From: Acidobacteriota bacterium
Lineage (GTDB): Bacteria > Acidobacteriota > Vicinamibacteria > JAXLQT01
Length of the DNA stretch: 64,000 nucleotides
NCBI GenBank assembly: GCA_046331505.1
Contig: JAXLQT010000036.1
Coordinates: forward strand, 267-64,266
Direction: 5' to 3'
Below, piece after piece: positions 26,043 through 61,685 of the stretch; position 1 is the stretch's first letter, and every line of letters begins with the position of its first letter. Below the pieces are notes generated by a model. The model worked only from the letters and a program-made list of their open reading frames with translations. It searched no databases and was not told the origin of the DNA. The translations under genes were made by a program, and so were the position numbers.

Positions 26043-26714
26043 TCACGACGTGCGCGGCACGCGCCGGGACAGCCAGGCGGCGACGTCCCGGATCTCCTCG
26101 GGCAGGACGTGGTGCGCCATCGGGTAGGTGTGGAACTCGACGTCGTAGCCGAGCTCCTCGAGCTGACGGCGGCAGAGCTGTCCGAGCGGCAGCGGCAAGA
26201 GTGGGTCGTGGGTGCCGTGGGCCTGGAAGATGGGCGTGCTCTGGTTGGCGGGGCTGCGCTCCGTTGCGAGGGCTTCGGCCTCGATGAGGTAGGTGGAGAG
26301 GGCGAGGATCCCCGCGAGCTTCTCGGGGTGGCGAAGGCCGGCGTAGAGCGCGATGGCGGCGCCCTGGGAGAAGCCGGCCAGGAGGATGCGATGCGGGGCG
26401 ATGCCGCGAGACGTCTCGCGGGCGATGAGGTTCTCGACGTCCTCCTCCGACTCGCGGACGTCGCCCATGTCGTAACCGGCCGCGGTGCCGAGATCGGTGA
26501 TGTCGTACCAGGCGGGCATGAGCATGCCCATGTTGACCGTCACGCATCGCCGCGGAGCGTGGGGGAAGACGAAGCGCACGTGAGGCAGGCCCAGCTCGGG
26601 GACGATGGGCTCGAAGTCGTGGCCGTCGGCGCCGAGGCCGTGGAGCCAGATGATCGATCCGGAGTGCGGCTCCACGGGCTCGACATCGACCGTCGGGAGC
26701 AGCGGCCGCGCCAT
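26043..26714 (-). CDS. carboxylesterase/phospholipase (alpha/beta hydrolase, Abhydrolase_2)
   Basis: Start ATG at 26714 (TGATG overlap with the upstream stop). Motifs are IIWLHGLGADGHDF, the nucleophile elbow GFSQGAA, and HGTHDPLLP. Confidence 0.85.
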   Translation of the reverse strand: MARPLLPTVDVEPVEPHSGSIIWLHGLGADGHDFEPIVPELGLPHVRFVFPHAPRRCVTVNMGMLMPAWYDITDLGTAAGYDMGDVRESEEDVENLIARETSRGIAPHRILLAGFSQGAAIALYAGLRHPEKLAGILALSTYLIEAEALATERSPANQSTPIFQAHGTHDPLLPLPLGQLCRRQLEELGYDVEFHTYPMAHHVLPEEIRDVAAWLSRRVPRTS

Positions 26715-28747
26715 CAGGAGGAAGCCGTCGCTTCGTAGACCTTCGCGTCGATGAACAGGCGCACGACGTCGGAGTCGAGCTGGCCTTCCTTCACCTCGGC
26801 CTCGATGATGGCGAGCGCCTTTGGGACGGGCACCGCCTTCTTGTAGGGGCGGTCGCTCGCGGTGAGGGCGTCGTAGATGTCGGCGACGGTCATCATCCGC
26901 GACTCGATGGGGATGCGCTCGGCGATGAGCTTGCGCGGGTAGCCCTTCCCGGTGAGCTTCTCGTGATGGGCGTAGGCGATCTCCGGCACGCGCTGGAACT
27001 CGCGCGTCCACGGGATCTGGGAGAGGAACTCGAAGGTCTGCGTGACGTGGGACTCGATCTGCCGCCGCTCGGTCTCGTCGAGGCTCCCGCGGCGGATGGA
27101 GAGGAGACGCACCTCCCTCTCATCGAGGAACGGCCGCTCCTCGCCGCCGATGTCGCGGTAGGTCCGTGATCCGAGCTTGTGGATGGCATCGAAGTTGCCC
27201 TCGGCCAGCACGGTCGGCTCGTTGGCGATCAGGACCGTCGCGAGCGCGTCGTCCACGAGGCCGAGCTCGGCCTGGAGCCGCTGCTCGATCTCGGGGATCT
27301 CCTTCTCGAGCCCGGAGGCTCCGCGGCCGAGCAGCGTCTCCACCTTCTGTCGCAGTGTCTCCGCCTCGATCCACTTCTTGATGTAGGCGAACCGTGCGCG
27401 TACGAGATCAAGGTGCGCCGGGTAGAGCTTCTTGCCCTTTACCAGCACCTCCTCGCGGACGCCGACCTTGCCGAAATCGTGGAGCAGCGCTGCGTAGCGG
27501 ATCTGCTTCATCTGGTCGCTGGTGAACGACACCTGGCGGAACCGTCCCTCGCCGGAACGGGCGACGACGTCGGCGAGCGACGTCGTCAACGTCGCCACGC
27601 GGAACGAGTGGCCCGACGTGGTGGGATCGCGCTGCTCGATCGCGGTCACCGACGCGGAGACGAACCCCTCGAAGAGGTTCCGCACCTCGGCGTAGAGCTT
27701 GTTGTTCTCGATCGCGACCGCCGCCTGTCCCGCGAGCGAGAGCACGAGGTCGACGGTCGGCGTCGAGAACGTGATCACCTCGTCGTCGACGTTCTGCTGC
27801 GTCAGCCTCCGGCCGCCCCGCTGGCGGCGGCGGTTGATGAGCTGGAGCACTCCGAGCCGCTCGCCCTTCACGTTGGTCATCGGCACCACCAGGACTGACT
27901 TGGTGCGGTAGCCGCCCTTCTGGTCGAAGGAGCGATCGAAGCTCAGCTCCGACCCTTCCGGCAGGTTGTAGGCGTCCTCGATGTTGAGCACCTGCCCCGT
28001 CAGGACCACGAACCCGGCGAGGCTGCTCTTCTTCAGAGGCAAGGGCGTGCTCTCGCTCTTGTCGAAGTTGACCGAGTCGTTCTGCGCCACGCGGAAGATG
28101 AGGCACGGCTCCCCTTCGCGCTCCTCGAGCAGGTAGAGGCTCCCGGCGTCGCACCCGGCGAGCTCCCGCGCCTTCCGCAGGATGAGCGAGAGCAGCTTGT
28201 CGAGATCGCGCTCGGTGGAGAGCGCCATGCCGATCGCGTTGAGCTCGCGAAGCTCGCGCGTCCGGTGGATGAGCTCGCTCTCGAGGAGCCTCGCGCGCCG
28301 CACCTCGAGTGCGGTCAGCGCGGCGCTCTTGATCTGCCGCAGAAGCGTCCTCGGCCGGAACGGGGGCGGGGCGTAGGAGAACACGCGCTCCTCCGGGATC
28401 GCCTCGGGCCGGTCCTCGGGATCGCAGACCAGGATGACGCCGATGTCTTGCCGCAGCGCGAGAGTCGCGACGGCCGACGGCTGGAGCGCCTCCGCGGCGC
28501 CCGCCCCGAGCGCGAGCACCATGATCTGATCGCCCTCGATCGCCGGGAGGTCCGCGCCCGGCGCGAGCCGCGCGACCTGGATGCCGAGCGCTCTGGCAAG
28601 GAGCGCGGCCTCGTCGAGGGTCGCGTCCGCCGAGAACCCGAGGACCATCAGGGGCTCGACGGCGGTGCGCGCGAGCGACGGCAGCTCCTGGGTCTCGGAC
28701 GTCTGCCGGCTGTGCATCGGGACCTCGCGCATGGAGCGTCCACCCAT
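26714..28747 (-). CDS. GAF + HD-GYP domain protein (probable c-di-GMP phosphodiesterase)
   Basis: 677 aa. The GAF region is DAGSLYLLEE...LQLINRR. The split HD-GYP has HSFRVA, LLHDFGKVGV and HHEKLTGKGYP. The N-terminal ~150 aa are unrecognised. Confidence 0.8.
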   Translation of the reverse strand: MGGRSMREVPMHSRQTSETQELPSLARTAVEPLMVLGFSADATLDEAALLARALGIQVARLAPGADLPAIEGDQIMVLALGAGAAEALQPSAVATLALRQDIGVILVCDPEDRPEAIPEERVFSYAPPPFRPRTLLRQIKSAALTALEVRRARLLESELIHRTRELRELNAIGMALSTERDLDKLLSLILRKARELAGCDAGSLYLLEEREGEPCLIFRVAQNDSVNFDKSESTPLPLKKSSLAGFVVLTGQVLNIEDAYNLPEGSELSFDRSFDQKGGYRTKSVLVVPMTNVKGERLGVLQLINRRRQRGGRRLTQQNVDDEVITFSTPTVDLVLSLAGQAAVAIENNKLYAEVRNLFEGFVSASVTAIEQRDPTTSGHSFRVATLTTSLADVVARSGEGRFRQVSFTSDQMKQIRYAALLHDFGKVGVREEVLVKGKKLYPAHLDLVRARFAYIKKWIEAETLRQKVETLLGRGASGLEKEIPEIEQRLQAELGLVDDALATVLIANEPTVLAEGNFDAIHKLGSRTYRDIGGEERPFLDEREVRLLSIRRGSLDETERRQIESHVTQTFEFLSQIPWTREFQRVPEIAYAHHEKLTGKGYPRKLIAERIPIESRMMTVADIYDALTASDRPYKKAVPVPKALAIIEAEVKEGQLDSDVVRLFIDAKVYEATASS

Positions 28748-41583: not shown

Positions 41584-42180
41584 TCAGCGCCCGCGGGGAC
41601 TCCGCTCGACCACTTCGTCGATGATGCCGTAGGCGCGCGCCTCCTCGGCCGTCATGAAGTTGTCGCGATCGGTGTCCTTGCGGATGTCCTCGAGGGTCTT
41701 GCCGGTCCTCCTCGCGAGGATCTCGTTGAGCTGATCGCGCATCTTCAAGATCTCGCGCGCGTGGATCGCGATGTCGGTCGCGCGTCCCTGGGCGCCCCCG
41801 AGCGGCTGGTGGATCATGATCCGCGAATGGGGCAGCGCGCGCCGCTTGCCCTTGGTGCCGCAGGCCAGGAGGAACGCGCCCATGGACGCGGCCTGCCCGA
41901 TGCACACGGTCTCGACGTCGCAGGCGATGTAGTTCATCGTGTCGAAGATGCCGAAGCCCGACGTCACGTAGCCACCGGGGCTGTTGATGTAGAAGGTGAT
42001 GGGCTTGGTCGGGTCCTGCAGCTCGAGGTAGAGGAGCTGCGCCACGATGAGCTGCCCCTTGTCGTCGTTCAGCTCGCCCGTGAGGAAGACGCAGCGCTCC
42101 TGGAGGAGCCGGGAGTAGAGATCGAAGCCGCGGTCGCCCTTGTCGGACGGCTCGATGATGGTCGGGATCTGGACTGGCAT
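41584..42180 (-). CDS. clpP: ATP-dependent Clp protease proteolytic subunit
   Basis: 198 aa. [23 protein letters not shown] (Ser), RIMIHQP (His) and [12 protein letters not shown] are textbook ClpP. Confidence 0.95.
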
Positions 42181-42189
42181 GGATGGCCT

Positions 42190-42416
42190 TTCGGTGAGAA
42201 CCGGCGGGGGATAAGCCCCCGCCCTACGTCCTTCTGCTTCGGTGAGAACCGGCGGGGGACAAGCCCCCGCCCTACGTCCTTCTGCTTCGGTGAGAACCGG
42301 CGGGGGATAAGCCCCCGCCCACGTCCTTCTGCTTCGGTGAGAACCGGCGGGGGATAAGCCCCCGCCCTACGTCCTTCTGCTTCGGTGAGAACCGGCGGGG
42401 AGAAGTCCCCCGCCCT
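42190..42416. repeat. tandem array of 4.7 copies of a 48-bp unit, each with a GC-rich hairpin (REP/BIME-like), directly upstream of clpP
   Basis: Units start at 42190, 42238, 42286 (47 bp, one T missing), 42333 and 42381 (diverged): ttcggtgagaaccGGCGGGGGataagCCCCCGCCctacgtccttctgc. Read on the clpP strand, each hairpin is preceded by GTAG. Confidence 0.85.
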
Positions 42417-42464
42417 CCGCGCTCGTTCGCGGCACACCGAATTTCGACTCTGGGAGGCTCGGTG

Positions 42465-42770
42465 TCAACTCCTCCCCGGCCGATCGGCCTCCTCGAGGAA
42501 CATCTCCATCGCGAGCACGAGGGCGCGCAACGCATCCACCATGCGACGCGCCTCGTGACGCTCGCCGGCCGCCATTCCTTCCGCCCACGCTGACAGCGCT
42601 TCGGGCGGGCACGCGCCGAGGCGCAAGAGCGAGTCGCGAAGCCACGTCCCGATGCGATCGGAAGGCCCCTCCGCGGACCCGATCTCCTCGAGGAGCTTCT
42701 TGATCCGGATCTGCTCCTCGTCGCCGAAGCGGAGCTTTCCCAGGCGCTTTTCGACTTCTTCGGACTTCAT
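42465..42770 (-). CDS. small hypothetical protein (101 aa)
   Basis: ATG at 42770 (MKSEEVEKRLGKLRFGDEEQIRIKKLLEEIG...). It has good G/C-ending codon bias, lies within junk ORF 42465..43112, and is divergent from the PP2C gene. Confidence 0.55.
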   Translation of the reverse strand: MKSEEVEKRLGKLRFGDEEQIRIKKLLEEIGSAEGPSDRIGTWLRDSLLRLGACPPEALSAWAEGMAAGERHEARRMVDALRALVLAMEMFLEEADRPGRS

Positions 42771-42814
42771 GGAGACGCGAACCGTGCCTCGCGTTCCAGC
42801 GTATTCTTGCAGAG

Positions 42815-44878
42815 ATGCGCGGTCCGCAGCTCGATCTCTCTGGGCTCCCCGCGCAGGCGCCCCGCACGCGCTTCGGCCGCGCGCTGCGCGGCTGCGTCCT
42901 GACCAACATCGCAGTCTCTGTGGTCGTCCTGCTCCTGTCTCCGTCCTGGGTGACGCGTGCCGGCGCCGTGTTCGGGATCGTGCTCGTCCTCCCGGTGATC
43001 GGCTTCTGGGGGATCCAGTGGTTCCGGAGGAAGGTGCTCTGGAAGGTCCGGCGGCGGCTCTTCGTGAGCTTCCTGCTGATCGGCGTGCTGCCCCTCTTCC
43101 TGTCGCTGTCACTGTCCCTCGTCGCCGAGGTGTTCTACGCCTTCTTCGCGAGCGCCTCGGCGGTGAAGCTCGCGCTCCAGGAGGTGGGACCGACGGTGGC
43201 GCTCATCGCAGACAACGCCTCGACGATGGCCACCCACCTCGCCGCCCACGGCCGCGAAGGCGCGGGCGACGAGCCCGGAGAGCTCCTGCCGCAGGGAATC
43301 CAGAGGCGCTTCCCGGGCATCGCCATCCACCGCATCGGCCCGGGAGCCGACCGCGATCCGACCGACTCCAAGAAGGCGATGCCCGAGTGGATGCGCGGCC
43401 CCGCGGTCGACGCCCTGTTCCTCGAGCCGGGATACCACGTCGCGTGGGCGAGCCTGCGGGTCGTCGAAGGCACCGAGGACCGGGTGCTGATCGTCCTGCC
43501 GCTCGACGAGAAGCTCGTGGAGGAGCTGCGCGGGCGCCTGGGCATCGGCACGCTCGTCAAGGTCCTCGCTCTCGACGAAGGGTGGGACGACGAGGACAGC
43601 CACGACCCCGGCATCACGATCGACACCGGAGGTCACCGGGCGCACATCAACGGAGACGACGACACCGAGGAGTTCTTCAAGCAGGTCAAGACGAGGCTGA
43701 ACGAGATCGGGCGGCCCCTCCCTTACCTCTGGGGCGTGACGATGGCGACACAGCGGTGGGAGGATCGGAAGCCGGCCGACGTGCTCGTCTTCTTCGCGTC
43801 GTCGTTCGGCGGCGATCTCGATCGCATGAAGGGCGCCTACTCCGGGGCGCCCGGCGAGTTCGTCAAGGCGCTCGGGATCGTCTTCGTCGCGTGCTTCGTG
43901 CTCGCGTACATGATCTTCCTCGGGATGGGGGTCCTCATCGCGGGCGCGGTCTCGGGGGGGATCGGGAGGCTCTACCAGGCCACGACGGAGTTCGCGCGCG
44001 GAAACCTCGACTTCCGGATCAAGGTGCGCCAGCGCGACCAGCTCGGCCACCTCGCGGCGTCGATGAACGCGATGGCGGACAACGTCCAGCGCCTCCTGCG
44101 CGAGTCCGCCGAGCGCGAGCGGCTCACCCAGGAGTTCGCGCTCGCCCAGGAGGTGCAGAAGAAGCTCCTCCCTCCCGCGTTGCCCCCCTTCTGCGGCGCG
44201 ACCGTCGCCGGCCGGCTCAAGCCGATGAGCGAGGTCGGCGGCGACACCTACGACTGGATGACGCTCTCGGACCACGAGCTCTTCGTGATGATCGGCGACG
44301 TCTCCGGCCACGGCCTGCGTCCCGGCCTCCTCGCCGCGATGGCCAAGGCGTGCCTCATGACGAAGGTGACGCACGACACCGGCCACCCCGCGATCCTCCA
44401 GGCGCTCCACAAGGTGGCCCTCGGCGCAATGGACCGCCGCCTCTTCATGACGGTGTCGCTCGCGACCTTCGACTTCACGGCCCACACGGTGACCCTCTCT
44501 TCGGCGGGCCACCCGCCGACGCTACGCTACCGGGACGGCGCCGTGGCCGAGCTCGGCGACGCGACGTACCCGCTCGGCGTGCGCGAGCAGCGTGAGTTCA
44601 CGTCGCGGGTCCACGACCTCGCGGCGGGCGACGTCTACCTGCTGATCTCCGACGGCGTCGTCGAGGGTCGCAACGGCAACGGCGACGTCTGGGGCTACGA
44701 CCGACTCTGCGACTCTCTCGCGCGCCACGCCTCCCGTCCGGCGGAGGAGATCCTCGACGGCATCCTCGACGATCTGCACTCCTACTGCGGCAACCGTCCG
44801 CAGGACGACGACATCACACTGGTCGTCGTCCAGATCGCCTCCGCTCCTGCTCCGGCAGGGGAGGCTCCCACGACCTAG
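42815..44878 (+). CDS. membrane-bound HAMP + PP2C/SpoIIE-family serine phosphatase (RsbU-like)
   Basis: 687 aa. TM helices flank a periplasmic-like domain. The HAMP region is around IGRLYQATTEFARGNLDFRIKV. PP2C motifs are EVGGDTYDW, VMIGDVSGHG, SAGHPP, LLISDGV and DDITLVVV. Confidence 0.85.
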   Translation: MRGPQLDLSGLPAQAPRTRFGRALRGCVLTNIAVSVVVLLLSPSWVTRAGAVFGIVLVLPVIGFWGIQWFRRKVLWKVRRRLFVSFLLIGVLPLFLSLSLSLVAEVFYAFFASASAVKLALQEVGPTVALIADNASTMATHLAAHGREGAGDEPGELLPQGIQRRFPGIAIHRIGPGADRDPTDSKKAMPEWMRGPAVDALFLEPGYHVAWASLRVVEGTEDRVLIVLPLDEKLVEELRGRLGIGTLVKVLALDEGWDDEDSHDPGITIDTGGHRAHINGDDDTEEFFKQVKTRLNEIGRPLPYLWGVTMATQRWEDRKPADVLVFFASSFGGDLDRMKGAYSGAPGEFVKALGIVFVACFVLAYMIFLGMGVLIAGAVSGGIGRLYQATTEFARGNLDFRIKVRQRDQLGHLAASMNAMADNVQRLLRESAERERLTQEFALAQEVQKKLLPPALPPFCGATVAGRLKPMSEVGGDTYDWMTLSDHELFVMIGDVSGHGLRPGLLAAMAKACLMTKVTHDTGHPAILQALHKVALGAMDRRLFMTVSLATFDFTAHTVTLSSAGHPPTLRYRDGAVAELGDATYPLGVREQREFTSRVHDLAAGDVYLLISDGVVEGRNGNGDVWGYDRLCDSLARHASRPAEEILDGILDDLHSYCGNRPQDDDITLVVVQIASAPAPAGEAPTT

Positions 44879-44923
44879 GGCGGCGGAGGCGGCGGACCTC
44901 CAGCGGATCCCGTGCGGGCGTAG

Positions 44924-44932
44924 TGCTAGAAT
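44924..44932 (+). promoter_or_regulatory. candidate extended -10 promoter element (TGcTAGAAT) upstream of the Pup-like ORF
   Basis: TGCTAGAAT lies 43 nt upstream of GTG 44975. No convincing -35. Purely a motif match. Confidence 0.25.
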
Positions 44933-44974
44933 CTGGTCCACGCGGCGCGCCGCGAAAGGCTCGGAGGTACGTCA

Positions 44975-45154
44975 GTGCGAAAGTCGAATGCAGAGGCGCG
45001 AGAGTCGAAGTCGGGAGTCGCCAGGGTGCTTCCGGCCACGGAGGAGAGCGCGAAGTCGAAGGCGGCGGCGCTCGTCAAGGACCTGAAGCGCGATGCCGCA
45101 AAAGATCCGAAGGACTACGTGACCCGCTGGGTCGTGCCGGGAGGCGGCGAGTAG
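44975..45154 (+). CDS. Pup-like small protein modifier (59 aa) ending Gly-Gly-Gly-Glu
   Basis: Below the 60-aa cutoff of the ORF track. GGAGG at 44963-44967 lies 7 nt before the GTG. Translation: MRKSNAEARESKSGVARVLPATEESAKSKAAALVKDLKRDAAKDPKDYVTRWVVPGGGE*. By hand count, 48 of 59 codons end in G/C. It is immediately upstream of a Pup-ligase family gene. Confidence 0.65.
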   Translation: MRKSNAEARESKSGVARVLPATEESAKSKAAALVKDLKRDAAKDPKDYVTRWVVPGGGE

Positions 45155-45237
45155 CCCGCCCGCTCCGGCGACCGCGGGGCGCAACCGAACGCGGCCCGTC
45201 CCGGCGCGCGGCGTCCGCGCAGCCGTCCCAGCCCGAT

Positions 45238-47145
45238 CGCCGCATCTTCGGGCTCGAGACCGAGTACGCCATCCTCTTCGAGCCTGCCGCCGGAGAGCGG
45301 CAGGCGCCCGACGGCCCGTCCATCTACGACGCCATCTCCGCGAGCGTCCTGTCCCGCGTGCGGGCGCTCCCCGCCAGGCACCGCAAGCACGGCCACTTCC
45401 TCGAGAACGGCGCCTTCCTCCATTACGAGGGACGCGCGGAGTCCGAGCCCCAGGGCCTCCTCGAGCTCTCCACGCCGGAGTGCCGTACCGCGAGGGACGT
45501 GGCGCTGTACAGCAAGGCGGGCGAGAAGCTCCTTGCGGATGCCCTGCCCGACGCCGAGAAGACGCTCGCCGCCGCGGGCTATCCGGGGACCATCGTGCTC
45601 GGGAAGAACGCCCGCGACGCCTTCGACAACACGTACGGAAGCCACGAGAACTACCTGGTCCGCGACCCGATCCCCCGCGCCAGGGCGCTGCTGCTCCTGG
45701 CGGCGTTCCTCGTCCTCCGGCTGCCGCTCCAGCTCTACGACGTGCTGCGCAGGGCCGGCGAGCTCCTCTACGTCATCCTGACGTTCGGCCTCTACCTGTG
45801 CGGGCTCGCGGTCATGCTCGTCCTGCGCCTCTTCAGGCGCCGAGACGAACGGTCCATTCCCCAGCGCATCGATCGCTTCCTCGAAGAGGTCGACGACGTC
45901 CTCCGGCCCCCCGTGCGCCGCGTCGGGATGGCCTTCCACCTCCTCTTCCGCCCCGCGGCGCGGCTCCTCTCGGCATTCATGAGGCTGTTCCTGTTCGAGG
46001 ACATCCGGAGGTTCCTTCCCACCTTCCTCGCGACGCGCCAGATCTTCACCGGCGCGGGCCACTTCTCGCGCGATCCGGACGAGCCGATCTTCTCCGTCAC
46101 CGAGAAGGCCGCCTCCATCACCTGCGTGACGCGCCTTTACTGGGACGACGCGCGCCATCGCCCGATGATCGACCTGAAGAACTTTCTCTTCGACGCGCGC
46201 GCCGTCGTGGCGCCGGAGAAGCGCCTGCAGCTCGTGCTGTCGGACTCGAACATGAGCGACGTCGCCGACTTCCTGAAGTTCGGCACGACGTCGCTCGTGC
46301 TGAGAGCGATCGAGGAGGGCGCCATCCCGGCGGGCCTGTGCCTCGCCGATCCCGTCGACGGCCTCCATCGCGTCGCGGGCGACCCCGAGCTCCGCACCAA
46401 GCTCGCGCTCGCGGACGGCCGCGAGCTGACCGCGCTCCAGATCCAGTGGGAGTACCTCACCCTTTGCGAGGGGCTCTTCCGAAGGAGCGGCACCGTGAGC
46501 ATCTCGGATCGCGAGGTGCTCCGGGAGTGGCGCCAGACCCTGACGGACCTGGAAGCGGATCCGGCCCTCGCCTCGGACCGGCTGGACTGGCCGCTCAAGC
46601 TGTTCCTCATCGGCCAGTCTCTCGAGGACGTCGATGCCCCGGATGCTCCCGGCGGCGCCGAGGATCCCCTGGCCGCGCTCGAAGTACTGGATCCGTGGCG
46701 CGAGATCGTGCTCCAGGCCGAGCTTTCCGGCGTCGATCTCAAGGGCGACGGGCGGGACATGGATCGCCTGCGCGCGCTCTTGCCCCGCGACGTCTTCGAG
46801 CGGCTCCAGCGGGGCCTCGCCTTCCGCCGCCTCGATCCCTCACGCCTCGAGCGGCAGGCGGATCGGATCTACCGGGCAAAGAAGGCCGACCTCAAGTACC
46901 ACGACATCACGCCGGGCCGCGGGTACTACGCCCGGGCCCGCGCGACGGAGCTCGCGCGGCCGCTGCACGACGACGAGAGAGTCGCCTGGGCCGCGAACAA
47001 CCCGCCCGCGGGGACCCGCGCCGCCCTCCGAGGAGCGTTCGTGAAGAGCCACCACCGCGATCCTGGGGGACGCGTCAACTGGACCGGTGGTCGCGCCCGC
47101 AAGGCGCGCGTGCGGTTCGGATCGCCATTCGACACGGACGCGTGA
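45238..47145 (+). CDS. PafA/Dop family (Pup-ligase/deamidase fold) protein with a ~100-aa hydrophobic insertion; true start undetermined
   Basis: RRIFGLETEYA, FLENGAFLHYE...LSTPEC, GKNARDAFDNTYGSHENYL, FLATRQIFTGAGH, LVLSDSNMSDVADFLKFGTTSLVL, LKYHDITPGRG and PPAGTRAALRGAFV parallel M. tuberculosis PafA motifs as I recall them. 45238 is the first conserved codon, not a start codon. Confidence 0.85.
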   Translation, partial: RRIFGLETEYAILFEPAAGERQAPDGPSIYDAISASVLSRVRALPARHRKHGHFLENGAFLHYEGRAESEPQGLLELSTPECRTARDVALYSKAGEKLLADALPDAEKTLAAAGYPGTIVLGKNARDAFDNTYGSHENYLVRDPIPRARALLLLAAFLVLRLPLQLYDVLRRAGELLYVILTFGLYLCGLAVMLVLRLFRRRDERSIPQRIDRFLEEVDDVLRPPVRRVGMAFHLLFRPAARLLSAFMRLFLFEDIRRFLPTFLATRQIFTGAGHFSRDPDEPIFSVTEKAASITCVTRLYWDDARHRPMIDLKNFLFDARAVVAPEKRLQLVLSDSNMSDVADFLKFGTTSLVLRAIEEGAIPAGLCLADPVDGLHRVAGDPELRTKLALADGRELTALQIQWEYLTLCEGLFRRSGTVSISDREVLREWRQTLTDLEADPALASDRLDWPLKLFLIGQSLEDVDAPDAPGGAEDPLAALEVLDPWREIVLQAELSGVDLKGDGRDMDRLRALLPRDVFERLQRGLAFRRLDPSRLERQADRIYRAKKADLKYHDITPGRGYYARARATELARPLHDDERVAWAANNPPAGTRAALRGAFVKSHHRDPGGRVNWTGGRARKARVRFGSPFDTDA

Positions 47146-47157
47146 CCCGGTGCCGCG

Positions 47158-48288
47158 TCACTTCGCGACGCGGCGGAGCTCGCTCTTTCGCCCGGGTGGG
47201 AGCGCGCGTAGCTGGGCGGAGCGCCACGAGATCCCCTCGCGGCCCGCGATGGCGCGGAGCACCCTGAACGCGGCGTCGCCGAGCCACCCCGGCGTGGCGC
47301 AGAGCGCGGCGAGGGCCGGGAGCTCCGCCTTGCCTCCGATCGCCTCGGCGGCGTGCAGGTGCTCGACGCGGAGCTCGTCGCGCAACGTCGACAGGAGCTC
47401 GCGAAGCTCCACCGCGGCCACGCGGCTCTCCTGAGACGCCAGGGCGAGATGGGCGCGGGCCGACAGGGCCACGACCTCCTGGCGATCCCGCGGGCGCGCG
47501 TGGAGCGCTTCCCCCGCGCGCTTGCACACCTCCCACAGCGGGGGGATCAGCGCGGCGTCTTTGACCTCGGTCGCGAGGAGCGCGAGGAGGCCCAGGCGGA
47601 CCGGTTCCGACTCCAGCTCGAGCCGCCGCGCGAGCGTCGAGACGGGGGTCACGCGCGCGACCGCGCGGCGGTGACGCAGCTCCTCCGGGGACTCGGGAAC
47701 GAACGCGAGGTACGCGTCGAGGCTCGGCGCCGCATCCGAGGGCGCGCGCTGCTGGGACGCATCGGCGGCAACGCGCATGTCGCCGAGATCGGCGAGGAGC
47801 TCGTCGAGCTCCCCCCCGGCGCGTTCGAGGGCAACGGGCGTCAGCATCGCGCCCTCCTGTGCGGACACGTTCGCCTCGCTCGCGCCGCTCACGCCGGCGC
47901 GCTGGAGGCGCGCGAGGCTCACGGCGATCGCAGCCAGCTCGGGAGGCCCCGCGGCGGGAACCAGGCCCGCGAGGGCGCGCACCGCCGCCGGCTTCTCGTA
48001 GGAGGCCAGGACCTTGATGGCGAGGATCGATCGCGCGCCGCGCCGCGCGCCCGCGGCACCCTCGAGAACGGGAATGACCCTCCGGTCCTTCAGCAGGCCC
48101 AGGAGCCGCAAGAGCCGCAGCGCCTGGAGCTCCTCCGCCGCGCCGAGCGCCTCGCAGATCGAGGGAAACGCGGGCGAGCCGATCACGAGCAACCGCGCCG
48201 CCGCCGCGGAAGCGCCATCGGGATCGGGGGCGGCGAGCCGCGCAAGGAGCTGCTGGATCTCGGTCCGCTTCGACGTCGCAATCGGCAA
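47158..48288 (-). CDS. HEAT/ARM-like helical repeat protein, function unknown
   Basis: 376-aa ORF, Leu/Ala-rich helical repeats (LLRLLGLLKDRRVIPVLEGAAG...AAVRALAGL). Convergent with the ligase gene. Confidence 0.5.
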   Translation of the reverse strand: MPIATSKRTEIQQLLARLAAPDPDGASAAAARLLVIGSPAFPSICEALGAAEELQALRLLRLLGLLKDRRVIPVLEGAAGARRGARSILAIKVLASYEKPAAVRALAGLVPAAGPPELAAIAVSLARLQRAGVSGASEANVSAQEGAMLTPVALERAGGELDELLADLGDMRVAADASQQRAPSDAAPSLDAYLAFVPESPEELRHRRAVARVTPVSTLARRLELESEPVRLGLLALLATEVKDAALIPPLWEVCKRAGEALHARPRDRQEVVALSARAHLALASQESRVAAVELRELLSTLRDELRVEHLHAAEAIGGKAELPALAALCATPGWLGDAAFRVLRAIAGREGISWRSAQLRALPPGRKSELRRVAK

Positions 48289-48325
48289 GAGGGGCCTTCC
48301 CGCGCGTCGCTATACTACCCGCCCG

Positions 48326-48817
48326 ATGGTCATGGTGAGGCGATCGATCGCGCTCACAGCGGTGCTCGCGGCGTCGTTGGCGGCGGCCGGGGAGCTTGCT
48401 CCGGTGACGGTCAAGCTCCCGTCGGGCACGGCGCTGCGGGGAGAGCTCGCGCAGGACGACGACGATCGCGCGCGGGGCCTCATGTTCCGCACGGAGGAGC
48501 AGTTCCAGCCCGATCAGGCGATGGTGTTCCTCTTCGAGACGATGGAGCTCCAGAGCTTCTGGATGAAGAACATGAACTTCGCGATCGACATCGTGTGGCT
48601 CTCGCCCGAGATGAAGATCGTTCACGTCGAGCGCGACGTGCCTCCGTGCACCAAGGAGGAGCGCGATTGCCCGCTCTACACTCCGGTGCAGAAGGCGCAG
48701 CTCGTCGTCGAGCTGTACCGCGGCACCTACGCCAAGGAGAAGCTGAAGGTGGGCGACGCGATCGAGGTCCGGACTCCGGACGGCAAGCCACTTGCCGTAC
48801 CGGGAAAGGACCCGTAG
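48326..48817 (+). CDS. DUF192 (COG1430) domain protein with signal peptide
   Basis: ATG at 48326 (MVMVRRSIALTAVLAASLAAAG). GLMFRTEEQFQPDQAMVFLFE...FWMKNMNFAIDIVWL is typical of DUF192. Confidence 0.75.
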   Translation: MVMVRRSIALTAVLAASLAAAGELAPVTVKLPSGTALRGELAQDDDDRARGLMFRTEEQFQPDQAMVFLFETMELQSFWMKNMNFAIDIVWLSPEMKIVHVERDVPPCTKEERDCPLYTPVQKAQLVVELYRGTYAKEKLKVGDAIEVRTPDGKPLAVPGKDP

Positions 48818-48818
48818 G

Positions 48819-49622
48819 TCAGGTCGCCCCGTAGAGGAACCGTGCGATGGCCTGGGTGACCAGCGCCGGCTGCTCCACGGGAGACGAGTGACCCGCACGC
48901 GGGATCTCGACGAGGCGCGATCCCGGGATCGCCGCCTGGATCGCGCGCGCCTTCGCAGGCGGCGTGGCGACGTCCTCGTCGCCGACCACGACGAGTGCCG
49001 GGACGCGGATCGATGCGATCTCCCCCCGGACGCCTTCGCGGGTGATGACGCCCATCGTGGCGCGAGCGGCGCCGGCACGATCCACCGCGCGGAGCCGTGC
49101 GCGCCATGCGCCGCGATCCGCCTCGCGCGCGGGGTCGGTCATGAAGGTCCTGCCGAAGAGGATCGGCATCACCTTGCCGATGACGGGCGCCGGACCCAGG
49201 AGCCGGGCGACGAACGCGAGCCGCCGGTAGCGCGGCACGTTCTCCGGCGGCTCGCGCTCGCACGACGTCTCGAGCAGGCACAGCGACCGGACGAGATCGG
49301 GCCTGCGCGCCGCGAGCCGCATGCCGACGAACCCGCCCATCGAGAGGCCGACGAAGTGGCAGGGCGCCGCGCCGAGGGCCTCGATCAGCGCGGCGGCATC
49401 GGCCGACGCGGTGTCCATGTCGTAGCCGCCGCGCGTCACCTCGCTCTTGCCTTGACCGCGATGGTCGTAGGCGATGCAGCGGTAGCGCGGCGAGAGCTCC
49501 GCCACCTGGGCGTCCCAGAGGCGCGTCGAGAGCAGGAGGCCGTGGGAGAAGACGACGGCCTGGGGGCCGCGCCCCGTCTCCTCGTAGGAGATCTCGACGC
49601 CGTTGACGCGGATGCGTGGCAC
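48819..49622 (-). CDS. alpha/beta hydrolase
   Basis: 267 aa. Motifs are VVFSHGLLLS, the nucleophile elbow GLSMGG, and C-terminal GHSSPVEQP. Confidence 0.85.
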   Translation of the reverse strand: MPRIRVNGVEISYEETGRGPQAVVFSHGLLLSTRLWDAQVAELSPRYRCIAYDHRGQGKSEVTRGGYDMDTASADAAALIEALGAAPCHFVGLSMGGFVGMRLAARRPDLVRSLCLLETSCEREPPENVPRYRRLAFVARLLGPAPVIGKVMPILFGRTFMTDPAREADRGAWRARLRAVDRAGAARATMGVITREGVRGEIASIRVPALVVVGDEDVATPPAKARAIQAAIPGSRLVEIPRAGHSSPVEQPALVTQAIARFLYGAT

Positions 49623-49660
49623 GCGGCGCGGGCGGGGCGATCGCCCCGGCCCCGTCTGAC

Positions 49661-49963
49661 CTAGTCCGCCGCGAAGGGCAAGAGCGCGATGTTGCGCGCG
49701 CGCTTGATCGCGATCATCAGCTTGCGCTGGTGCGTGGAGCAGGTGCCGGAGATGCGGCGGGGGAGGATCTTCCCGCGCTCGGGGATGAACTGGAGCAGGA
49801 GCTTCTGGTCCTTCCAGTCGATGGAGTCGATCTTCTCCGCGCAGAACTTGCAGACCTTGCGTCGCCGGAAGAAGCCGCGGCCGCGTCCGCCCGCGCCGCC
49901 GCCGCGCGGGCCGCGCCCGCCTTCCTTGGGATCCCGGAGATCGTCGTTGCTCTCGTCAGCCAT
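49661..49963 (-). CDS. rpsR: 30S ribosomal protein S18 with Arg/Gly-rich N-terminal extension
   Basis: [65 protein letters not shown] is classic S18, preceded by [32 protein letters not shown]. Confidence 0.9.
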
Positions 49964-49984
49964 GTGTTTGCCTTTCGAACCGGT

Positions 49985-50055
49985 GGGGGCAAGCCCCCTG
50001 CGTATCTCGTGGGGAAGAGCCCCACCAAGACATTGCGAGGGGATCGACCCCTCGC
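49985..50055. repeat. three consecutive GC-rich hairpins between dnaJ and rpsR (one REP-like; the dnaJ-proximal one a candidate terminator)
   Basis: GGGGGCaaGCCCCC (49985-49998), GTGGGGaagagCCCCAC (50009-50025), GCGAGGGGatcgaCCCCTCGC (50035-50055). The flank gaaccggtgggggcaagccccc parallels gaaccggcgggggataagccccc of the clpP-upstream repeat. Confidence 0.45.
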
Positions 50056-50108
50056 TGAATCGGGGCCAAGAGCCTACCTCATGCTCCCGGCCGCCACAAC
50101 CCGCGGCG

Positions 50109-51281
50109 TCATCCGAAGATGCTCTTGACCTTCTCGAAGATGGACTTTCCCGCCGCGGGTGCGGACCCGGACCCGCTGGCGGCAGCCGTGCCCTTGGGCT
50201 CGACGATGGGCCCGCCCGCTCCTTCGAGGAGCTTCTGATAGAGCTCGCGCTCGTGAGCGCTGAGGTCGGTCGGCGTGCGCACCTCGACGACCACGTACTG
50301 ATCGCCGTGCCCGTATCCGTCCATGCGGGTGAGACCCTTGTTGCGCAGACGGAACGTGGTCCCGTGCTGCGTCCCGGCCGGCACCGAGACCTTCTCCTCG
50401 CCGCCCATCGTCGTCGGCACGACCAGCGTCGTGCCGAGGGCCGCCTGCGGAAACGAGATCGGGACCGGGCAGTAGACGTCGGCGCCGTCGCGCTTGAACA
50501 GCGGGTGATCGGCCACGTGGACGTCGACGTAGAGATCCCCCGACGAGCCGCCGAGGATCCCGCTCTCGCCCTGGCCGCGCACCCGCATGCGCTGCCCCGA
50601 TTCGACGCCGGCGGGGATCGGCACCTTCACCGCCTTCTCGACGTGAACGCGCCCCTGGCCGCGGCACGCGCGGCACGGATCGGTCAGGATCTCGCCCCGT
50701 CCCTGGCATCGCGGGCACGTGCGGGCGATCGTGAAGATGCCCTGACTGAACGCCACCTGGCCGCGGCCGCGGCAATCGGGACAGCGCGACCGTCCCCGCT
50801 CGCTCGCCGCACCGCTGCCATGGCAGACCTCGCACGCGTCCAGGCGCGGGACCGTGATCGTCTTCTGCACCCCCTTCGCCATCTCGTCGAAGGTGATCGA
50901 GACGCCCGCGCGAAGGTCGGACCCGCGCCGGCCACCGCCGCGGCGCTCGCCGCCGAATCCCCCGCCGCCGAACCCGAACAGGTCTCCGAGGATGTCGGAG
51001 AAGTCCGCGAAGATCGTGGGGTCGAAGCCGGCCCCGCCGGATGCGGCGGACGTGCCGACGGCCGCATGCCCGAAGCGGTCGTAGCGCGCGCGCTTCTCGG
51101 CATCGGAGAGCACCGCGTACGCCTCGGCCGCTTCCTTGAACTTCTCCTCGGCCTCGGCGTTGCCGGGGTTCTTGTCGGGATGGTACTGAAGCGCGGCCTT
51201 CCGGTAGGCCTTCTTGACTTCGTCCGCCGTGGCGGTCCTGGCCACGCCCAGGACCTCGTAGAAGTCTCGCTTGTCCGCCAA
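50109..51281 (-). CDS. dnaJ: molecular chaperone DnaJ
   Basis: J domain (DFYEVLGV...YHPDKN), G/F region, and four CxxCxGxG zinc motifs. Confidence 0.95.
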
Positions 51282-51287
51282 GGCGCC

Positions 51288-53168
51288 TTAGGTTCCCGGC
51301 TTGCGCGCGCCCGGTCCCGTGGGCGCGGCGCCCGTGTCCATCACGCCCTCGTCCGCCGGCTTTCCGGCGCCGAACAGCATCGCATCGGTGAGCTGCTGCC
51401 CCACGACCTGGAGCATCACGATGGCGTTGTTCATCTCGGCCAGCGTCCCCTCCTGGAGCACCTGGCGCGACTTCTTCAGCGTGTCGCGGATCCCCGGCAG
51501 CTCCTCCTTCTTGAGGAAGCGCCCGACCTCCTGGAACACCCGTTCGTTCGTGTAGAGGAGCCCTTCGAGCTTGTTCTGCTGGAGCTGCTTCTCCTTGCGC
51601 TGGCGATCCTCCTCCGCGTGCTTGCTCGCATCCTCGATGATGCCCTTGATCTCGTCCTCGGAGAGCCCCGACGACGCGGTGATACGGATCGCCTGCTCGC
51701 GGCCCGACGCCTGGTCCTTCGCCGACACGTGGACGATGCCGTTGCTGTCGACCTCGAAGGTCACGTCGATCTGCGGCACGCCGCGCGGCGCCGGAGGGAT
51801 GCCGACGAGCTCGAACTTCGCAAGCGACTTGTTGTGGGCGGCCACTTCGCGCTCCCCCTGGAGCACGTGGACCTCGACCTTGCCCTGGTTGTCGGTGACC
51901 GTCGAGAACACCATCGTCTTCTTGATCGGGATCGTGGAGTTGCGCTCGATGACCTTGGTGAACATCCCGCCGTGGGTCTCGATGCCCAGCGACAGCGGCG
52001 TGACGTCCAGGAGGATGAGGTCCTTGATGTCGCCCTGGAGGATGCCGCCCTGGATCGCGGCGCCGACGGCCACGACCTCGTCTGGGTTCTTGTCGCGGTT
52101 CGGCTCTTTCTTGAAGATCTCGCGCACGATCTCGATGACGCGCGGCGTGCGGGTCTGCCCGCCGACGAGGATGATCTCGTCGAGCTTGTCGGGCGACATC
52201 GCCGCGTCCTTCATCGCCTTCAGGCACGGCTCGACCGTACGGTCGATGACGTCCTTCACCAGCTCCTCGAACTTCGCCCGCGTCAGCGTCGTGGTGAGGT
52301 GCTTCGGACCGGTGGCGTCGGCGGAGATGAACGGCAGGTTGATCTCCGTCGTCTCGACCGAGGAGAGCTCGATCTTCGCCTTCTCGGACGCCTCCTTCAG
52401 GCGCTGCAGCGCCATGCGGTCGCTCCGGAGATCGATCTTGGTCTTCTCCATGAACTCCCGCACGAGCCAGTCGATGATCTTCTGGTCGAGGTCCTCGCCG
52501 CCGAGCAGCGTGTCGCCGTTGGTGGCGAGCACCTCGAACACGCCGTCGCCGATCTCGAGGATCGAGATATCGAACGTGCCCCCGCCGAGGTCGTAGACCG
52601 CGATCTTCTGGTTCTTGCGCTGGTCCATGCCGTAGGCCAGCGCCGCGGCCGTCGGCTCGTTGATGATCCGCAGGACGTTCAGCCCCGCGATCTTCCCGGC
52701 GTCCTTCGTCGCGTTACGCTGGCTGTCGTCGAAGTAGGCGGGGACCGTGATGATCGCCTCCTCGACCTTCTCACCGAGGTGCTCCTCGGCGATCTCGCGC
52801 ATGCGCTGGAGCACGATGGCGGAGATCTCGGGAGGGCTGTACTCGCGGTCGCGCACCTTGATGCGCGCGTCGCCGTTCTGCGTTTCCGTCAGCTTGTAGG
52901 GCAGGAGCTTCATCACCTTCTGCACTTCGTCGCTGTCGAACTTGCGGCCGATGAGGCGCTTGACCGCGTAGAGCGTGTTCTGCGGGTTGGTGATGGCCTG
53001 GCGCTTGGCGATCTGTCCAACGAGACGCTCGCCCTTCTCCGTGAAGGCCACGATCGACGGCGTGGTGCGCGACCCTTCCTTGTTCGCGATCACGAAGGGC
53101 TTGCCGCCTTCGATGACGGACACGCACGAGTTGGTGGTGCCGAGGTCTATCCCGATGATCTTCGCCAT
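51288..53168 (-). CDS. dnaK: molecular chaperone DnaK (Hsp70)
   Basis: [30 protein letters not shown] and the rest are full-length Hsp70 (626 aa). Confidence 0.97.
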
Positions 53169-53185
53169 GAAACTTCTCCCAGAGC

Positions 53186-54020
53186 TTATCCGCCCTCAGA
53201 CCCGCCCGGCGACGTCCCATCGCCGTCGCCCGATGCGACGGAAGGATCGGCGGCCGCCGGAACCGCCTCGTCCGCGCCGGCCGGCGCCACCGCCACCTTG
53301 ACGCACGCGGCTCGCAGCAACCGGTCGTGGTGCATGTAGCCCTTCTGGAGCTCCGAGACCACGGTGTTGCTCGGGAAGTCCGCCCGCTCCTCGCTTGCGA
53401 CCGCCTCGTGGAAGTTGGGATCGAACTCCTGGCCGATGGAGACGATCTCCTTGAGGCCGAAGCGCCCCAGCGCGTCGCGGAACTGCTTCATGATGAGCTC
53501 CACGCCCTGCCGGATGCTCTGGGCATCGGCCTCCCGATCGACGCTCATCGCGCGCTCGAAGTTGTCGAGCACGGGCAAGAGGTCCTTGAGGATGCCGCTG
53601 TGGGCGTACTTCTGGAACTCGTCCTTGTCGCGCTGCATGCGCTTGCGGAAGTTGTCGAAGTCCGCGATCTTCCGCGCGACGGCGTCGCGCAGATCGGTGA
53701 TCTCGACCTTCTGGCGATCGATCTCCGACTCGAGCTCGGCGATGCGGCGCTGGTCCTTCGTCGGACCCACGGGCCTGGGAGGGGCGACGGGGGCCGCCTC
53801 TTCCTCGATGATGATCTCCTCCTGGATCTCCTCCGGCGGATCGGCGCCCGCATCCGCGGCCGCGGCCCGCTCCTGCGTCCGCTGCTTCTGCCTCTCGGTG
53901 ATCCTGTCGGCCGATGCCTGCGCCTCCTTGAGGATGTCGTCGAGGCTCTCCTCGCCGGTCTCCTGATCGGCGTCGAGGAACAGGATGTCGTCGTCGGCCG
54001 GGGCCTTCCCCTTCTTGCGC

Positions 54021-54028
<8 letters not shown>
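53186..54028 (-). CDS. grpE: nucleotide exchange factor GrpE (long acidic N-terminus and Ala/Gly-rich C-terminal tail)
   Basis: [15 protein letters not shown]...[11 protein letters not shown]...[12 protein letters not shown]...[13 protein letters not shown]. The start overlaps the hrcA stop by 8 nt. Confidence 0.9.
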
Positions 54029-55103
<1,075 letters not shown>

Positions 55104-60187: not shown

Positions 60188-61685
60188 ATGGTCGAGACCA
60201 GCAAGCCCAGCATCCTCGTCGTCGACGACAACGACGAGATCCTCGAATTCCTCACGCTCCAGCTCGAGCGGCGCGGCTACCGGGCCATCACCTGCCGGCG
60301 CGGGCGCGACGCCGTGAGGCTCGCGCAGGAGCGGCGGCCCGACCTCGTGCTCCTCGACATCCTTGATGCCCGACGTCGACGGCTTCCGGATCTGCCGCAT
60401 GCTGAAGGACGATCCGGAGACCGCGAAGATCCCCGTCATCTTCCTGACGGCGAAGACGACCGACGTCGACAAGTTGAAGGGCTTCGAGGTGGGGGGCGAG
60501 GACTACCTCGTCAAGCCGTTCAAGATCCACGAGCTCATCGGCAAGGTGCAGATCTTCCTGCGCATCAAGGCGCTCATCGACGTCGCCGAGCAGAAGGCGA
60601 AGAGCGCCCGCGCGCTGTTCGAGATCGGCAAGCTCATGTGCGGGTCCCTCGATCTTCCGGAAGTCCTCTCGGCGATCACGGCGTCGGTGAAGGACCTGCT
60701 GCACGCCGACTCCGCCTCCATCATGCTCTGCGACGAGGAGCGGCGGAACCTCCGCGTGAGCCACGTGGAGGGCCCGTACGCCGAGCTCTACATCGAACGG
60801 ACGGTGCCGATCTCCGAGAGCATCGCCGGCTGGGTGGTCCGGCGCGGCGAGCCCGTGCTGATCGACGACATCGACAACGATCCGCGCTTCGGCGGCTTCC
60901 CGCGGCGGAGCCAGGTCAAGTCCGCGATGATCACGCCGCTCACCCACAAGGACGTCACCTTCGGCACGATCAACGTGAGCTACCTCGCCGAGCGACGGCT
61001 CGGGTCGGAGGCGCTCCAGCTCCTCTTCACGCTGTCGTCTCAGGCCGCGCTCGCCATCGCGAACGCCCGGCTCGTGGCGTCCATCCGGGCGTCGCACCTG
61101 CGCACGATCGAGGCGCTCGCCAAGGCGGTCGACCAGAAGGACAGCTACACCGCGAGCCATTGCGACAACGTCGCCGACTACGCCGCTTTGATCGCGGAGC
61201 GCCTGGGGCTCCCGGCGATCATCGTCGAGGAGATCCGGGTCGGCGGGATGCTCCACGACATCGGCAAGATCGGCATCGGGGACGACATCCTCAAGAAGCC
61301 CGCGCGGCTCGACACCGCGGAATACACGAGCATGATGGAGCATCCGAGCAAGGGCCACGAGATCCTGCTCGGCGCCGGCATCTCAGGCGCGACGCTCGAA
61401 GCCGTCCTGCACCATCACGAGCGCATGGACGGGAAGGGCTACCCGGCGGGCCTCGCGGGGGAAGAGATCCCGCTCGCGGCGCGCATCGTGCTCGTCGCCG
61501 ACGCGTTCGACGCGATGACGACGGACCGCGTCTACCGGAAGGGGATGCCGTTCTCCTCCGCCATCACGGAGCTGCGCAAGTACGAGGGGAGCCAGTTCGA
61601 CAAGGGTTGCATCGACGCGCTCTGCGAGGCGCTCGTCGCGGTGGGAAAGATCGTCGCCGCCGAGCTCGAGCAGGCGCAGCCGTAG
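60188..61685 (+). CDS. response regulator receiver + GAF + HD-GYP protein (RpfG-like); apparent +1 frameshift at ~60359-60366
   Basis: Frame A from ATG 60188 gives MVETSKPSILVVDDNDEILEFL...RRPDLVLLDI. Frame B (track ORF 60363..61685) continues (L)MPDVDGFRICRMLKDDPETAKIPVIFLTAK...VKPF, then GAF, then HDIGKIGI...HHHERMDGKGYP. Deleting one T in gacatccTTgatg restores DILMPDVDGF. Confidence 0.75.

Follow-up and report, generated by a model that had tools for sequence, protein, structure and literature searches.

Almost all work on Pup-type tagging concerns Actinobacteria, where it leads proteins to the proteasome. Pup ligases with transmembrane segments inserted directly after core strand 4 were described from Plesiocystis and Rhodopirellula in a computational study of 2008 by Iyer, Burroughs and Aravind (Biol Direct, PMC2588565), which reported that these membrane ligases adjoin a Pup gene, are linked to a membrane protein gene and show no linkage to a proteasome. 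In the work of Hecht et al. (PMC7947786), single-copy planctomycete homologues fall outside PafA and Dop alike and serve as their outgroup. The membrane clade goes unmentioned in two reviews (PMC6466877 and PMC3511204), and no experimental study of it came up in our literature searches. The locus considered here lies in a 64,000-nucleotide stretch of contig JAXLQT010000036.1 (the whole of this stretch is called the window below) from a probable member of the Acidobacteriota, and pairs a PafA/Dop-like gene of the Pup-ligase family (45244–47145, + strand, as called in the genome collection; product of 633 residues, P0001) with a small Pup-like open reading frame (ORF; 44975–45154, + strand) directly upstream of it. 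A sequence-only reading of this DNA had regarded a membrane-inserted Pup ligase as unusual. That view does not hold, since such enzymes were reported in 2008 (PMC2588565) and since the top 150 clusters (at 50% identity) in a search of 1.84 billion representative sequences are nearly all of this type. The window gene is a member of the clade described by Iyer et al. and so is not new in kind. New here are the size of the clade and its reach to probable Acidobacteriota and Candidatus Xenobia, together with the presence of a Glu-ending tag gene in every locus examined, an Asp-to-Glu and His-to-Gln signature in the active site, and a longer subfamily that has a second helical insertion.

Like the ligases of Plesiocystis pacifica and Rhodopirellula baltica, the window protein carries its hydrophobic helical insert directly after core strand 4 (the strand bearing HENYL), and in those systems, too, the gene just ahead of the ligase is a small Pup-like one whose product ends in G-E, and the proteasome is unlinked. 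The window copy differs from them in coming from a probable Acidobacteriota, an assignment based on the bin label of a syntenic contig with a 55%-identical ligase, in belonging to the longer subfamily (616–665 residues) with the second, C-terminal insertion and in reading HENY rather than QENY or QESY. Furthermore, whereas the P. pacifica and R. baltica enzymes were described with four transmembrane segments, the window protein has two clear hydrophobic spans and an amphipathic segment. We favour, with a probability of about 0.6, the reading that the window holds a two-gene, proteasome-unlinked, membrane-anchored pupylation-like cassette, in which an anchored ligase would tag lysines of nearby, probably membrane-associated proteins.

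By translation and in P0001 numbering, Leu138 of the GSHENYL motif ends at position 45657 and Thr264 of the TRQ motif starts at 46033, which leaves exactly the 125 codons (residues 139–263; 45658–46032, + strand) that the sequence-only reading had counted between them. The roughly 20 residues that it gave for this place in M. tuberculosis PafA, which is soluble, also agree with the 20–29 residues that we found in 104 canonical PafA/Dop sequences. When the window protein was compared by phmmer with all PDB sequences, residues 74–144 aligned with Dop 99–165 and residues 251–456 with Dop 166–370. Since query residue 144 is paired with Dop 165 and query residue 251 with Dop 166, about 106 residues, beginning 7 residues past HENYL, are without a counterpart in solved Dop (4b0r) or PafA (4b0t). 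Across 253 family sequences the distance from ENY to the Thr of TRQ is bimodal, with 20–29 residues in the 104 canonical enzymes and 80–240 (mode 120–129) in the 149 others. The latter number is a lower bound, so that the insert clade comprises at least 149 diverse homologues; these span Planctomycetota, Myxococcota, probable Acidobacteriota and Candidatus Xenobia, and include many relatives from Planctomycetota as well as one from Paraliomyxa, which belongs to the same myxobacterial group as Plesiocystis. The reading frame across 45400–46200, which translates to ...TYGSHENYLVRDPIPRARALLLLAAFLVLRLPLQLYDVLRRAGELLYVILTFGLYLCGLAVMLVLRLFRRRDERSIPQRIDRFLEEVDDVLRPPVRRVGMAFHLLFRPAARLLSAFMRLFLFEDIRRFLPTFLATRQ..., is uninterrupted and free of stop codons through the insert, the G+C content at third codon positions (GC3) is 0.83–1.00 in each 30-codon block there, as in the remainder of the ligase gene, and the same insert is present in relatives at 53–55% identity. 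On these grounds we rejected a frameshift or assembly artefact, one of two trivial explanations for which the sequence-only reading had left room. The other, an ordinary variable loop of soluble homologues, was also rejected because solved Dop and PafA and the 104 canonical sequences hold just 20–29 residues there.

The hydrophobicity of the insert was assessed with Kyte-Doolittle (KD) averages over a 19-residue window, in which values of 1.6 or above were taken as membrane-grade, and with Wimley-White octanol sums. The membrane-grade threshold is reached by only two stretches of the 633-residue protein, both of which lie within the insert. Segment 1 (residues 146–168, ARALLLLAAFLVLRLPLQLYDVL; 45679–45747, + strand), in which Pro161 is conserved in the clade, is a marginal candidate for a transmembrane helix, with a KD maximum of 1.69 and an octanol sum of -6.3. 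Segment 2 (residues 171–198, core LLYVILTFGLYLCGLAVMLVLRLF; 45754–45837, + strand) is a strong candidate, with corresponding values of 2.36 and -10.8, and is followed by RRRDER. A polar, charged linker helix (residues 199–225; 45838–45918, + strand; KD below 0, hydrophobic moment up to 2.3), which the AF2 model described below assigns to helix 205–249, then leads to the amphipathic hydrophobic segment 3 (residues 226–251, RVGMAFHLLFRPAARLLSAFMRLFLF; 45919–45996, + strand; KD about 1.0, octanol sum down to -5.7 and so only slightly favourable), which runs into the core helix bearing TRQ. The strongly transmembrane-like segment and the amphipathic third stretch that had been described from the letters alone are thereby borne out.

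This composition recurs throughout the clade. At least 30 residues of membrane-grade cover lie inside the insert in 147 of the 149 insert-clade proteins, only 2 of which have any such cover outside it, and a single one of the 104 canonical enzymes has membrane-grade cover anywhere. The first hydrophobic block (segments 1 and 2) has a clade-wide median length of 52 residues (10th–90th percentile 44–60), which is about the length of two spans and would bring the chain back to the side from which it started. As the insert lies inside a cytoplasmic domain, its topology must return the chain to the same side, as two spans would. The flank past this block is rich in Lys and Arg across the clade, and the clade alignment contains a conserved [IL]P column, whose Pro lies, with aromatic or polar residues, about halfway along the block. 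Compared with its two closest relatives, the window protein is 28% identical in segments 1 and 2, 62% in segment 3 and 57–69% in the core; low identity in the putative transmembrane block beside a conserved core and segment 3 is what one would expect if an anchor is joined to a structurally constrained return helix. Overall, the composition of the insert points to a membrane anchor and is kept clade-wide even though its sequence is not.

The assignment of the enzyme to the Pup-ligase fold, made in the sequence-only reading, agrees with both profile and structure comparisons. The protein matches the Pfam family PF03136 (Pup_ligase) with an E-value of 2.3e-85 and 287.7 bits, where the cut-off is 25, and the two insertions split this match into three parts. 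An AlphaFold2 (AF2) model of the ligase, built from a 68-sequence alignment, has a mean predicted local distance difference test score (pLDDT) of 91.6 and a predicted template-modelling score (pTM) of 0.90. When this model was compared with the PDB by Foldseek, the best matches were to Dop (7oxv and 4b0r; E 2.7e-28, target-normalised TM-score 0.73–0.83), PafA (4bjr and 4b0t) gave target-normalised TM-scores of 0.72–0.74, and YbdK/GCS2-type ligases were matched far more weakly. The window enzyme is thus predicted to have the Pup-ligase (PafA/Dop) fold, and Dop is the best match to its core by sequence as well as by structure. The second insertion specific to part of the clade is helical and covers residues ~459–545 (~70–85 residues; 46618–46878, + strand). 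It is evident from phmmer, in which query residues 456 to 543 correspond to Dop 370 to 384, from the alignment (columns ~590–690) and from the AF2 model, where its helices have a pLDDT of ~95. This insertion is confined to the subfamily of 616–665 residues and is absent from the subfamily of 540–610 residues and from PafA and Dop.

Cui et al. (PMC8599861) list Glu8, Glu10, Tyr92, Glu99, His155 and His241 as the Mg ligands of Dop and Asp94 as the residue that activates water. These positions were mapped onto the window protein by phmmer and by a 267-sequence MAFFT alignment, in which the 149 insert-clade and the 104 canonical sequences were compared. Glu8 and Glu10, invariant in the canonical enzymes, correspond to E5 (Glu in 142 insert-clade sequences, a gap in 6 and Gly in 1) and E7 (Glu in 143, a gap in 6), while Glu99 corresponds to E74, which is invariant in both groups. 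The catalytic Asp94 corresponds to Glu62 (codon 45427–45429, + strand), and this position is Glu in 149 of 149 insert-clade sequences versus Asp in 104 of 104 canonical ones. The two His ligands, each conserved in 104 of 104 canonical sequences, correspond to His134 (for His155; codon 45643–45645), where the insert clade has Gln in 104 cases and His in 45, and to Gln329 (for His241; codon 46228–46230), where it has Gln in 117 cases and His in 20. Tyr92, also found in 104 of 104 canonical sequences, corresponds to His60 at a position that varies in the insert clade. E79, E135 and R265 are invariant in insert-clade and canonical sequences alike, and R327, D334 and N336 are at least 95% conserved in both. 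In the phmmer alignment 'lhyeg' of the window protein is paired with 'lyldv' of PafA, and the catalytic column holds Asp in 4b0t and Asn in 4bjr, the latter presumably an engineered mutant of the catalytic Asp. Since it is exactly at this column that the chain from the PafA-Pup complex, 4bjr, has Asn, we take residue 62 to be the catalytic Asp position. The signature of the clade in the active site and the insert co-occur perfectly. Judged from these alignments, the ATP-Mg carboxylate-amine ligase machinery appears to be retained with a clade-specific signature: the window protein shares with PafA (4b0t, 4bjr) the fold, the ATP/Mg carboxylates and the Arg, as well as a Gly-Glu-ending tag encoded in the same locus, but has Glu for the catalytic Asp of PafA and Gln329 for its His. 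Dop, too, is soluble and has the catalytic Asp, along with the Dop-loop, whereas the window protein has Glu and the membrane-type insert. When we searched the literature, we found no published Asp-to-Glu mutant of either PafA or Dop.

The strongest clue to function is the Pup-like gene upstream of the ligase, which the sequence-only reading had missed. This ORF of 59 codons plus a stop codon begins with GTG and its product ends ...RDAAKDPKDYVTRWVVPGGGE, the C-terminal Gly-Glu being the presumed site of conjugation. Its GC3 is 0.82 compared to 0.52 in the overlapping ligase frame, a Shine-Dalgarno sequence (GGAGG, 44963–44967) lies 7 nt upstream of the GTG, and its stop codon is 90 nt ahead of the ATC at 45244 that the collection calls as the start of the ligase. 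All 14 insert-clade loci examined carry an equivalent small ORF immediately before the ligase gene. Thus, a locus labelled Acidobacteriota_UBA4820 (L001), the ligase of which is 55% identical to that of the window, has a 70-codon ORF ending ...KRYVVQWEVRGGGE at the same place, and small upstream ORFs end ...AYVKQWVVPGGGE in a Candidatus Xenobia locus, ...GYLEDTVVPEGGE in a Paraliomyxa locus and ...GYILAFTVPAGGE in a metagenome contig (L004); those of an uncultured Myxococcales metagenome-assembled genome (L010) and of several Planctomycetota end in GGE, GAE, SGE or CGE. From a scan of the genome collection with the alignment we obtained about ten loci of the insert clade, along with true Pup genes for comparison; the scan returned mostly actinobacterial PafA/Dop, by which it was swamped because the HENYLV pattern is common to both, and no genome near that of the window. 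A profile made from 13 of the small ORFs retrieved 72 protein clusters from a collection of 5.8 billion sequences, of which 71 end in Gly-Glu and none in Gln; every one of the 72 is unnamed or annotated as 'hypothetical', and Pfam domains are absent from all of them. By contrast, Dop uses a Gln-ending Pup in many species. Iyer et al. (PMC2588565) recognised Pup-family tags as proteins of 50–90 residues with a C-terminal G-[EQ] encoded next to a ligase. The window ORF, with 59 residues, a GGE end and a position directly upstream of the ligase, conforms to this description, by which the small ORFs are putative Pup-family tags. Within the tags we also observed a highly conserved Pirellula-type subgroup of 68 residues (L018, 2571–2777; L019, 1669–1875; 30+ clusters, P0268 among them). 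Its members contain Cys, read …IESTVIWIGKDSESxSNEYLEECNTHQ[SC]GE and end in S/C-G-E instead of G-G-E.

Among the ~40 window ORFs scanned, no Pfam match to a proteasome subunit or an Mpa-type AAA protein was detected, and neither kind of gene was found in six homologous loci for which Pfam-listed called genes were available (L001–L007). The window cassette differs in this respect from PafA, whose gene is linked to those of the proteasome and of Dop. UBact resembles the window cassette in combining Pup-family tags with PafA/Dop homologues outside Actinobacteria. UBact loci are reported (by Lehmann et al. in 2017) to hold homologues of proteasome subunits, and the UBact tag reportedly ends in R-[TS]-G-[EQ]; the window tag, by contrast, has P-G-G-G-E at its C-terminus, and its locus combines an enzyme that has a membrane insert with a lack of linked proteasome genes. 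All-against-all BLASTP of the flanking ORFs of 14 loci revealed no conserved third gene beside the cassette. The conserved unit is a two-gene cassette.

By homology with PafA, we infer how a membrane-anchored, pupylation-like cassette would work, from membrane insertion and topology to ligase activity and targets. The tag gene at 44975–45154 would give rise to a small, probably disordered Pup-like protein with a Gly-Glu end. In the enzyme, the helical insert of ~106 residues would break the catalytic domain after the HENYL strand, with the first ~50 residues forming two membrane-spanning helices, after which a charged cytoplasmic helix and then an amphipathic helix would lead back into the core, so that the enzyme would be held in the inner membrane and its catalytic domain would face the cytoplasm. 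There it would bind the C-terminal part of the tag and, with ATP-Mg, activate the terminal Glu by phosphorylation of its gamma-carboxylate, whereupon the tag would pass to the epsilon-amine of a lysine in a nearby target protein, presumably one associated with the membrane. The sequence-only reading had surmised envelope-proximal substrates or regulation. As the tag always ends in Glu, deamidation would not be required, and, since no proteasome genes are linked, the tag would probably act as a regulatory mark or feed another protease.

Several results weigh against this reading. When five of the small ORFs were searched against Pfam, including Pup (PF05639), at E-values up to 10, no match was obtained, and hhalign of the 13 small ORFs against 14 true Pups from actinobacterial loci gave a weak match (P 0.016, probability 2.8%); this alignment is collinear at the C-terminal helix, where L..I..DA...P..YL....VP aligns with LLDEIDEVLEENAEEFVR.YVQK, beside the C-terminal Gly-Gly-Glu/Gln. 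The enzyme falls far short of the NCBIfam equivalog cut-offs for both PafA (TIGR03686, 209.5 bits against 551.3) and Dop (TIGR03688, 192.1 bits against 492.3) and is therefore an equivalog of neither; these near-equal, sub-threshold scores fit the outgroup placing in PMC7947786. The Asp-to-Glu change, and the Gln that mostly stands for His (Gln329 here), are unlike any characterised PafA or Dop, and activity of the window enzyme, judged by these residues, should not be assumed. Segment 1 of P0001 barely passes the membrane-grade threshold, with a KD maximum of 1.69, and has Arg159, Gln163 and Asp166 within it. The AF2 models of P0001 (helix 145–197, a 7-residue turn and helix 205–249, pLDDT 71–88) and of the 55%-identical P0002 (helices 170–225 and 227–281) show the same long hairpin, that is, one continuous helix of 53–56 residues, a turn and a return helix of 45–55 residues, and not a hairpin of two spans. 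Moreover, absence of linked proteasome genes applies to the 64-kb window, and a proteasome may be encoded elsewhere in the genome. Lastly, the ligase frame lacks a canonical start, as ATG, GTG and TTG are all absent from 44923 to the conserved GLETEY core.

The modelled hairpin invites the explanation that the insert is a long helical arm for oligomerisation, partner binding or peripheral (monotopic) association with the membrane rather than a transmembrane anchor. The antiparallel two-helix arrangement, seen in both P0001 and P0002 with no break between the hydrophobic halves, and the charged residues in the marginal segment 1 speak for such an arm. However, the AF2 model carries no membrane, and the continuity of its helix is weakly informed because only 17 aligned sequences span the insert. 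In 148 relatives, the median length of the first block is 52 residues, most of them apolar, with a mean of just 1.5 Lys/Arg and 0.3 Asp/Glu; such a block would be hard to keep soluble. The conserved Pro and the aromatic or polar residues at mid-block also speak against the arm. We regard this explanation as unlikely. A Dop-like hydrolase, acting as a depupylase or deamidase that removes a Pup-like tag at the membrane, appears distinctly unlikely. Dop does match the window protein slightly better than PafA does (151 versus 103 bits in phmmer; E 3e-28 versus 4e-26 in Foldseek), and NCBI names relatives of the window protein 'PafA2 family', but the NCBIfam score for PafA is marginally above that for Dop, with both below cut-off, and the planctomycete homologues fall outside both PafA and Dop (Hecht et al., PMC7947786). 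In addition, a single family member stands beside the tag, with no partner ligase in the 6–10 kb flanks of the loci, and deamidation would be unnecessary for tags of which 71 of 72 end in Glu and none in Gln.

An acceptor other than lysine would be compatible with a catalytic domain held at the membrane, with the distinct active-site signature of the clade (Glu for Asp, Gln for His) and with a neighbourhood that has no conserved protein partner or protease gene. The terminal Glu of the tag might then be coupled to the amine of, for example, the phosphatidylethanolamine head group, with an outcome like that of Atg8-PE, or the enzyme might make a gamma-glutamyl small molecule, as the superfamily includes small-molecule ligases (the weaker Foldseek matches to YbdK/GCS2). 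That the enzyme is strictly paired with a Pup-like tag speaks against a role in small-molecule chemistry alone, and, to our knowledge, all characterised members of the PafA/Dop family act on protein lysines; we consider such an acceptor quite improbable. A broader proposal starts from the invariant Glu at the catalytic Asp position, the Gln that replaces two His ligands and the lack of linked proteasome genes, and holds that the insert clade as a whole is a mechanistically distinct, membrane-localised tagging system. Its acceptor might then not be a lysine of a soluble protein but, for example, the amine of a lipid head group or specific signalling proteins of the membrane, among them the HAMP-PP2C phosphatase encoded next to the cassette. 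This is decidedly unlikely, though, if true, it would amount to a proteasome-independent, ubiquitin-like signalling pathway in Gram-negative phyla. Finally, the missing canonical in-frame start codon could be taken as a sign of a decaying pseudogene, or of an artefact of assembly in the gene or its insert. This is hardly credible for a frame that is unbroken, with a GC3 of 0.83–1.0 through the insert, for an insert common to 149 independent sequences from several phyla, and for an enzyme with intact catalytic residues and a confident AF2 model.

Should the enzyme of the favoured membrane-anchored cassette prove active, it would reveal how a Pup-type tag is used where no proteasome is involved, for instance in the regulation of membrane proteins or in hand-over to another protease, and would provide a natural Asp-to-Glu variant with which to probe the catalytic mechanism. 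Annotation is affected as well, as the tag genes are now 'hypothetical' and missed by Pfam, and the enzyme names 'PafA2 family' and 'proteasome accessory factor' are probably misleading.

The true start of the ligase gene is uncertain. Only two near-cognate codons are available in its frame, the ATC at 45244 called in the collection and a CTG at 45127, which would overlap the last 28 nt of the tag ORF and may be the start. The GC3 of the ligase frame rises to a coding-type value (0.87) directly past the tag stop codon at 45154, and the relatives of the ligase have ordinary ATG starts. A 740-codon ORF from 44923 was considered as the ligase gene and rejected, as its GC3 is 0.52 over the first 77 codons and the Pup-like ORF occupies that span in another frame. 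A promoter and terminator scan of 44600–47400 gave no matches, which is uninformative at 70% GC, and an Rfam scan of the window gave zero matches.

Upstream, the cassette is adjoined by a gene for a multi-pass membrane HAMP-PP2C (SpoIIE) phosphatase (42815–44878, + strand; Pfam HAMP and SpoIIE, KD blocks at residues 22–70, 78–114 and 344–384). This gene is kept beside the cassette only here and in the syntenic relative L001, and the linked membrane protein gene reported in PMC2588565 has no conserved counterpart in the loci compared. Downstream, a convergent ORF of 376 residues (47158–48288, - strand) ends 13 nt past the ligase stop codon; it belongs to no Pfam family, gives a faint HEAT-like signal and has no hydrophobic segment, and a 396-residue counterpart occupies the same place in L001. 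Further neighbours in the window are ClpP (41584–42180, - strand), which lies upstream, DUF192, an alpha/beta hydrolase and, downstream on the - strand, dnaJ-dnaK-grpE-hrcA. With ClpP and the dnaK cluster around it, the cassette is set among genes of protein quality control. The gene order of the window from 41584 to 55103 is common to L001 (6495–19027) only and not to more distant loci, and the ClpP and dnaJ-dnaK-grpE-hrcA surroundings may hence reflect synteny of the lineage rather than functional linkage. Elsewhere in the window, signalling proteins with GAF and HD/HD_5 (HD-GYP-like) domains are encoded at 26714–28747 (- strand) and 60363–61685 (+ strand), one of them with a partial receiver domain, and together with a Ser/Thr kinase (14896–16116) and the HAMP-PP2C phosphatase they make for a signalling-rich neighbourhood.

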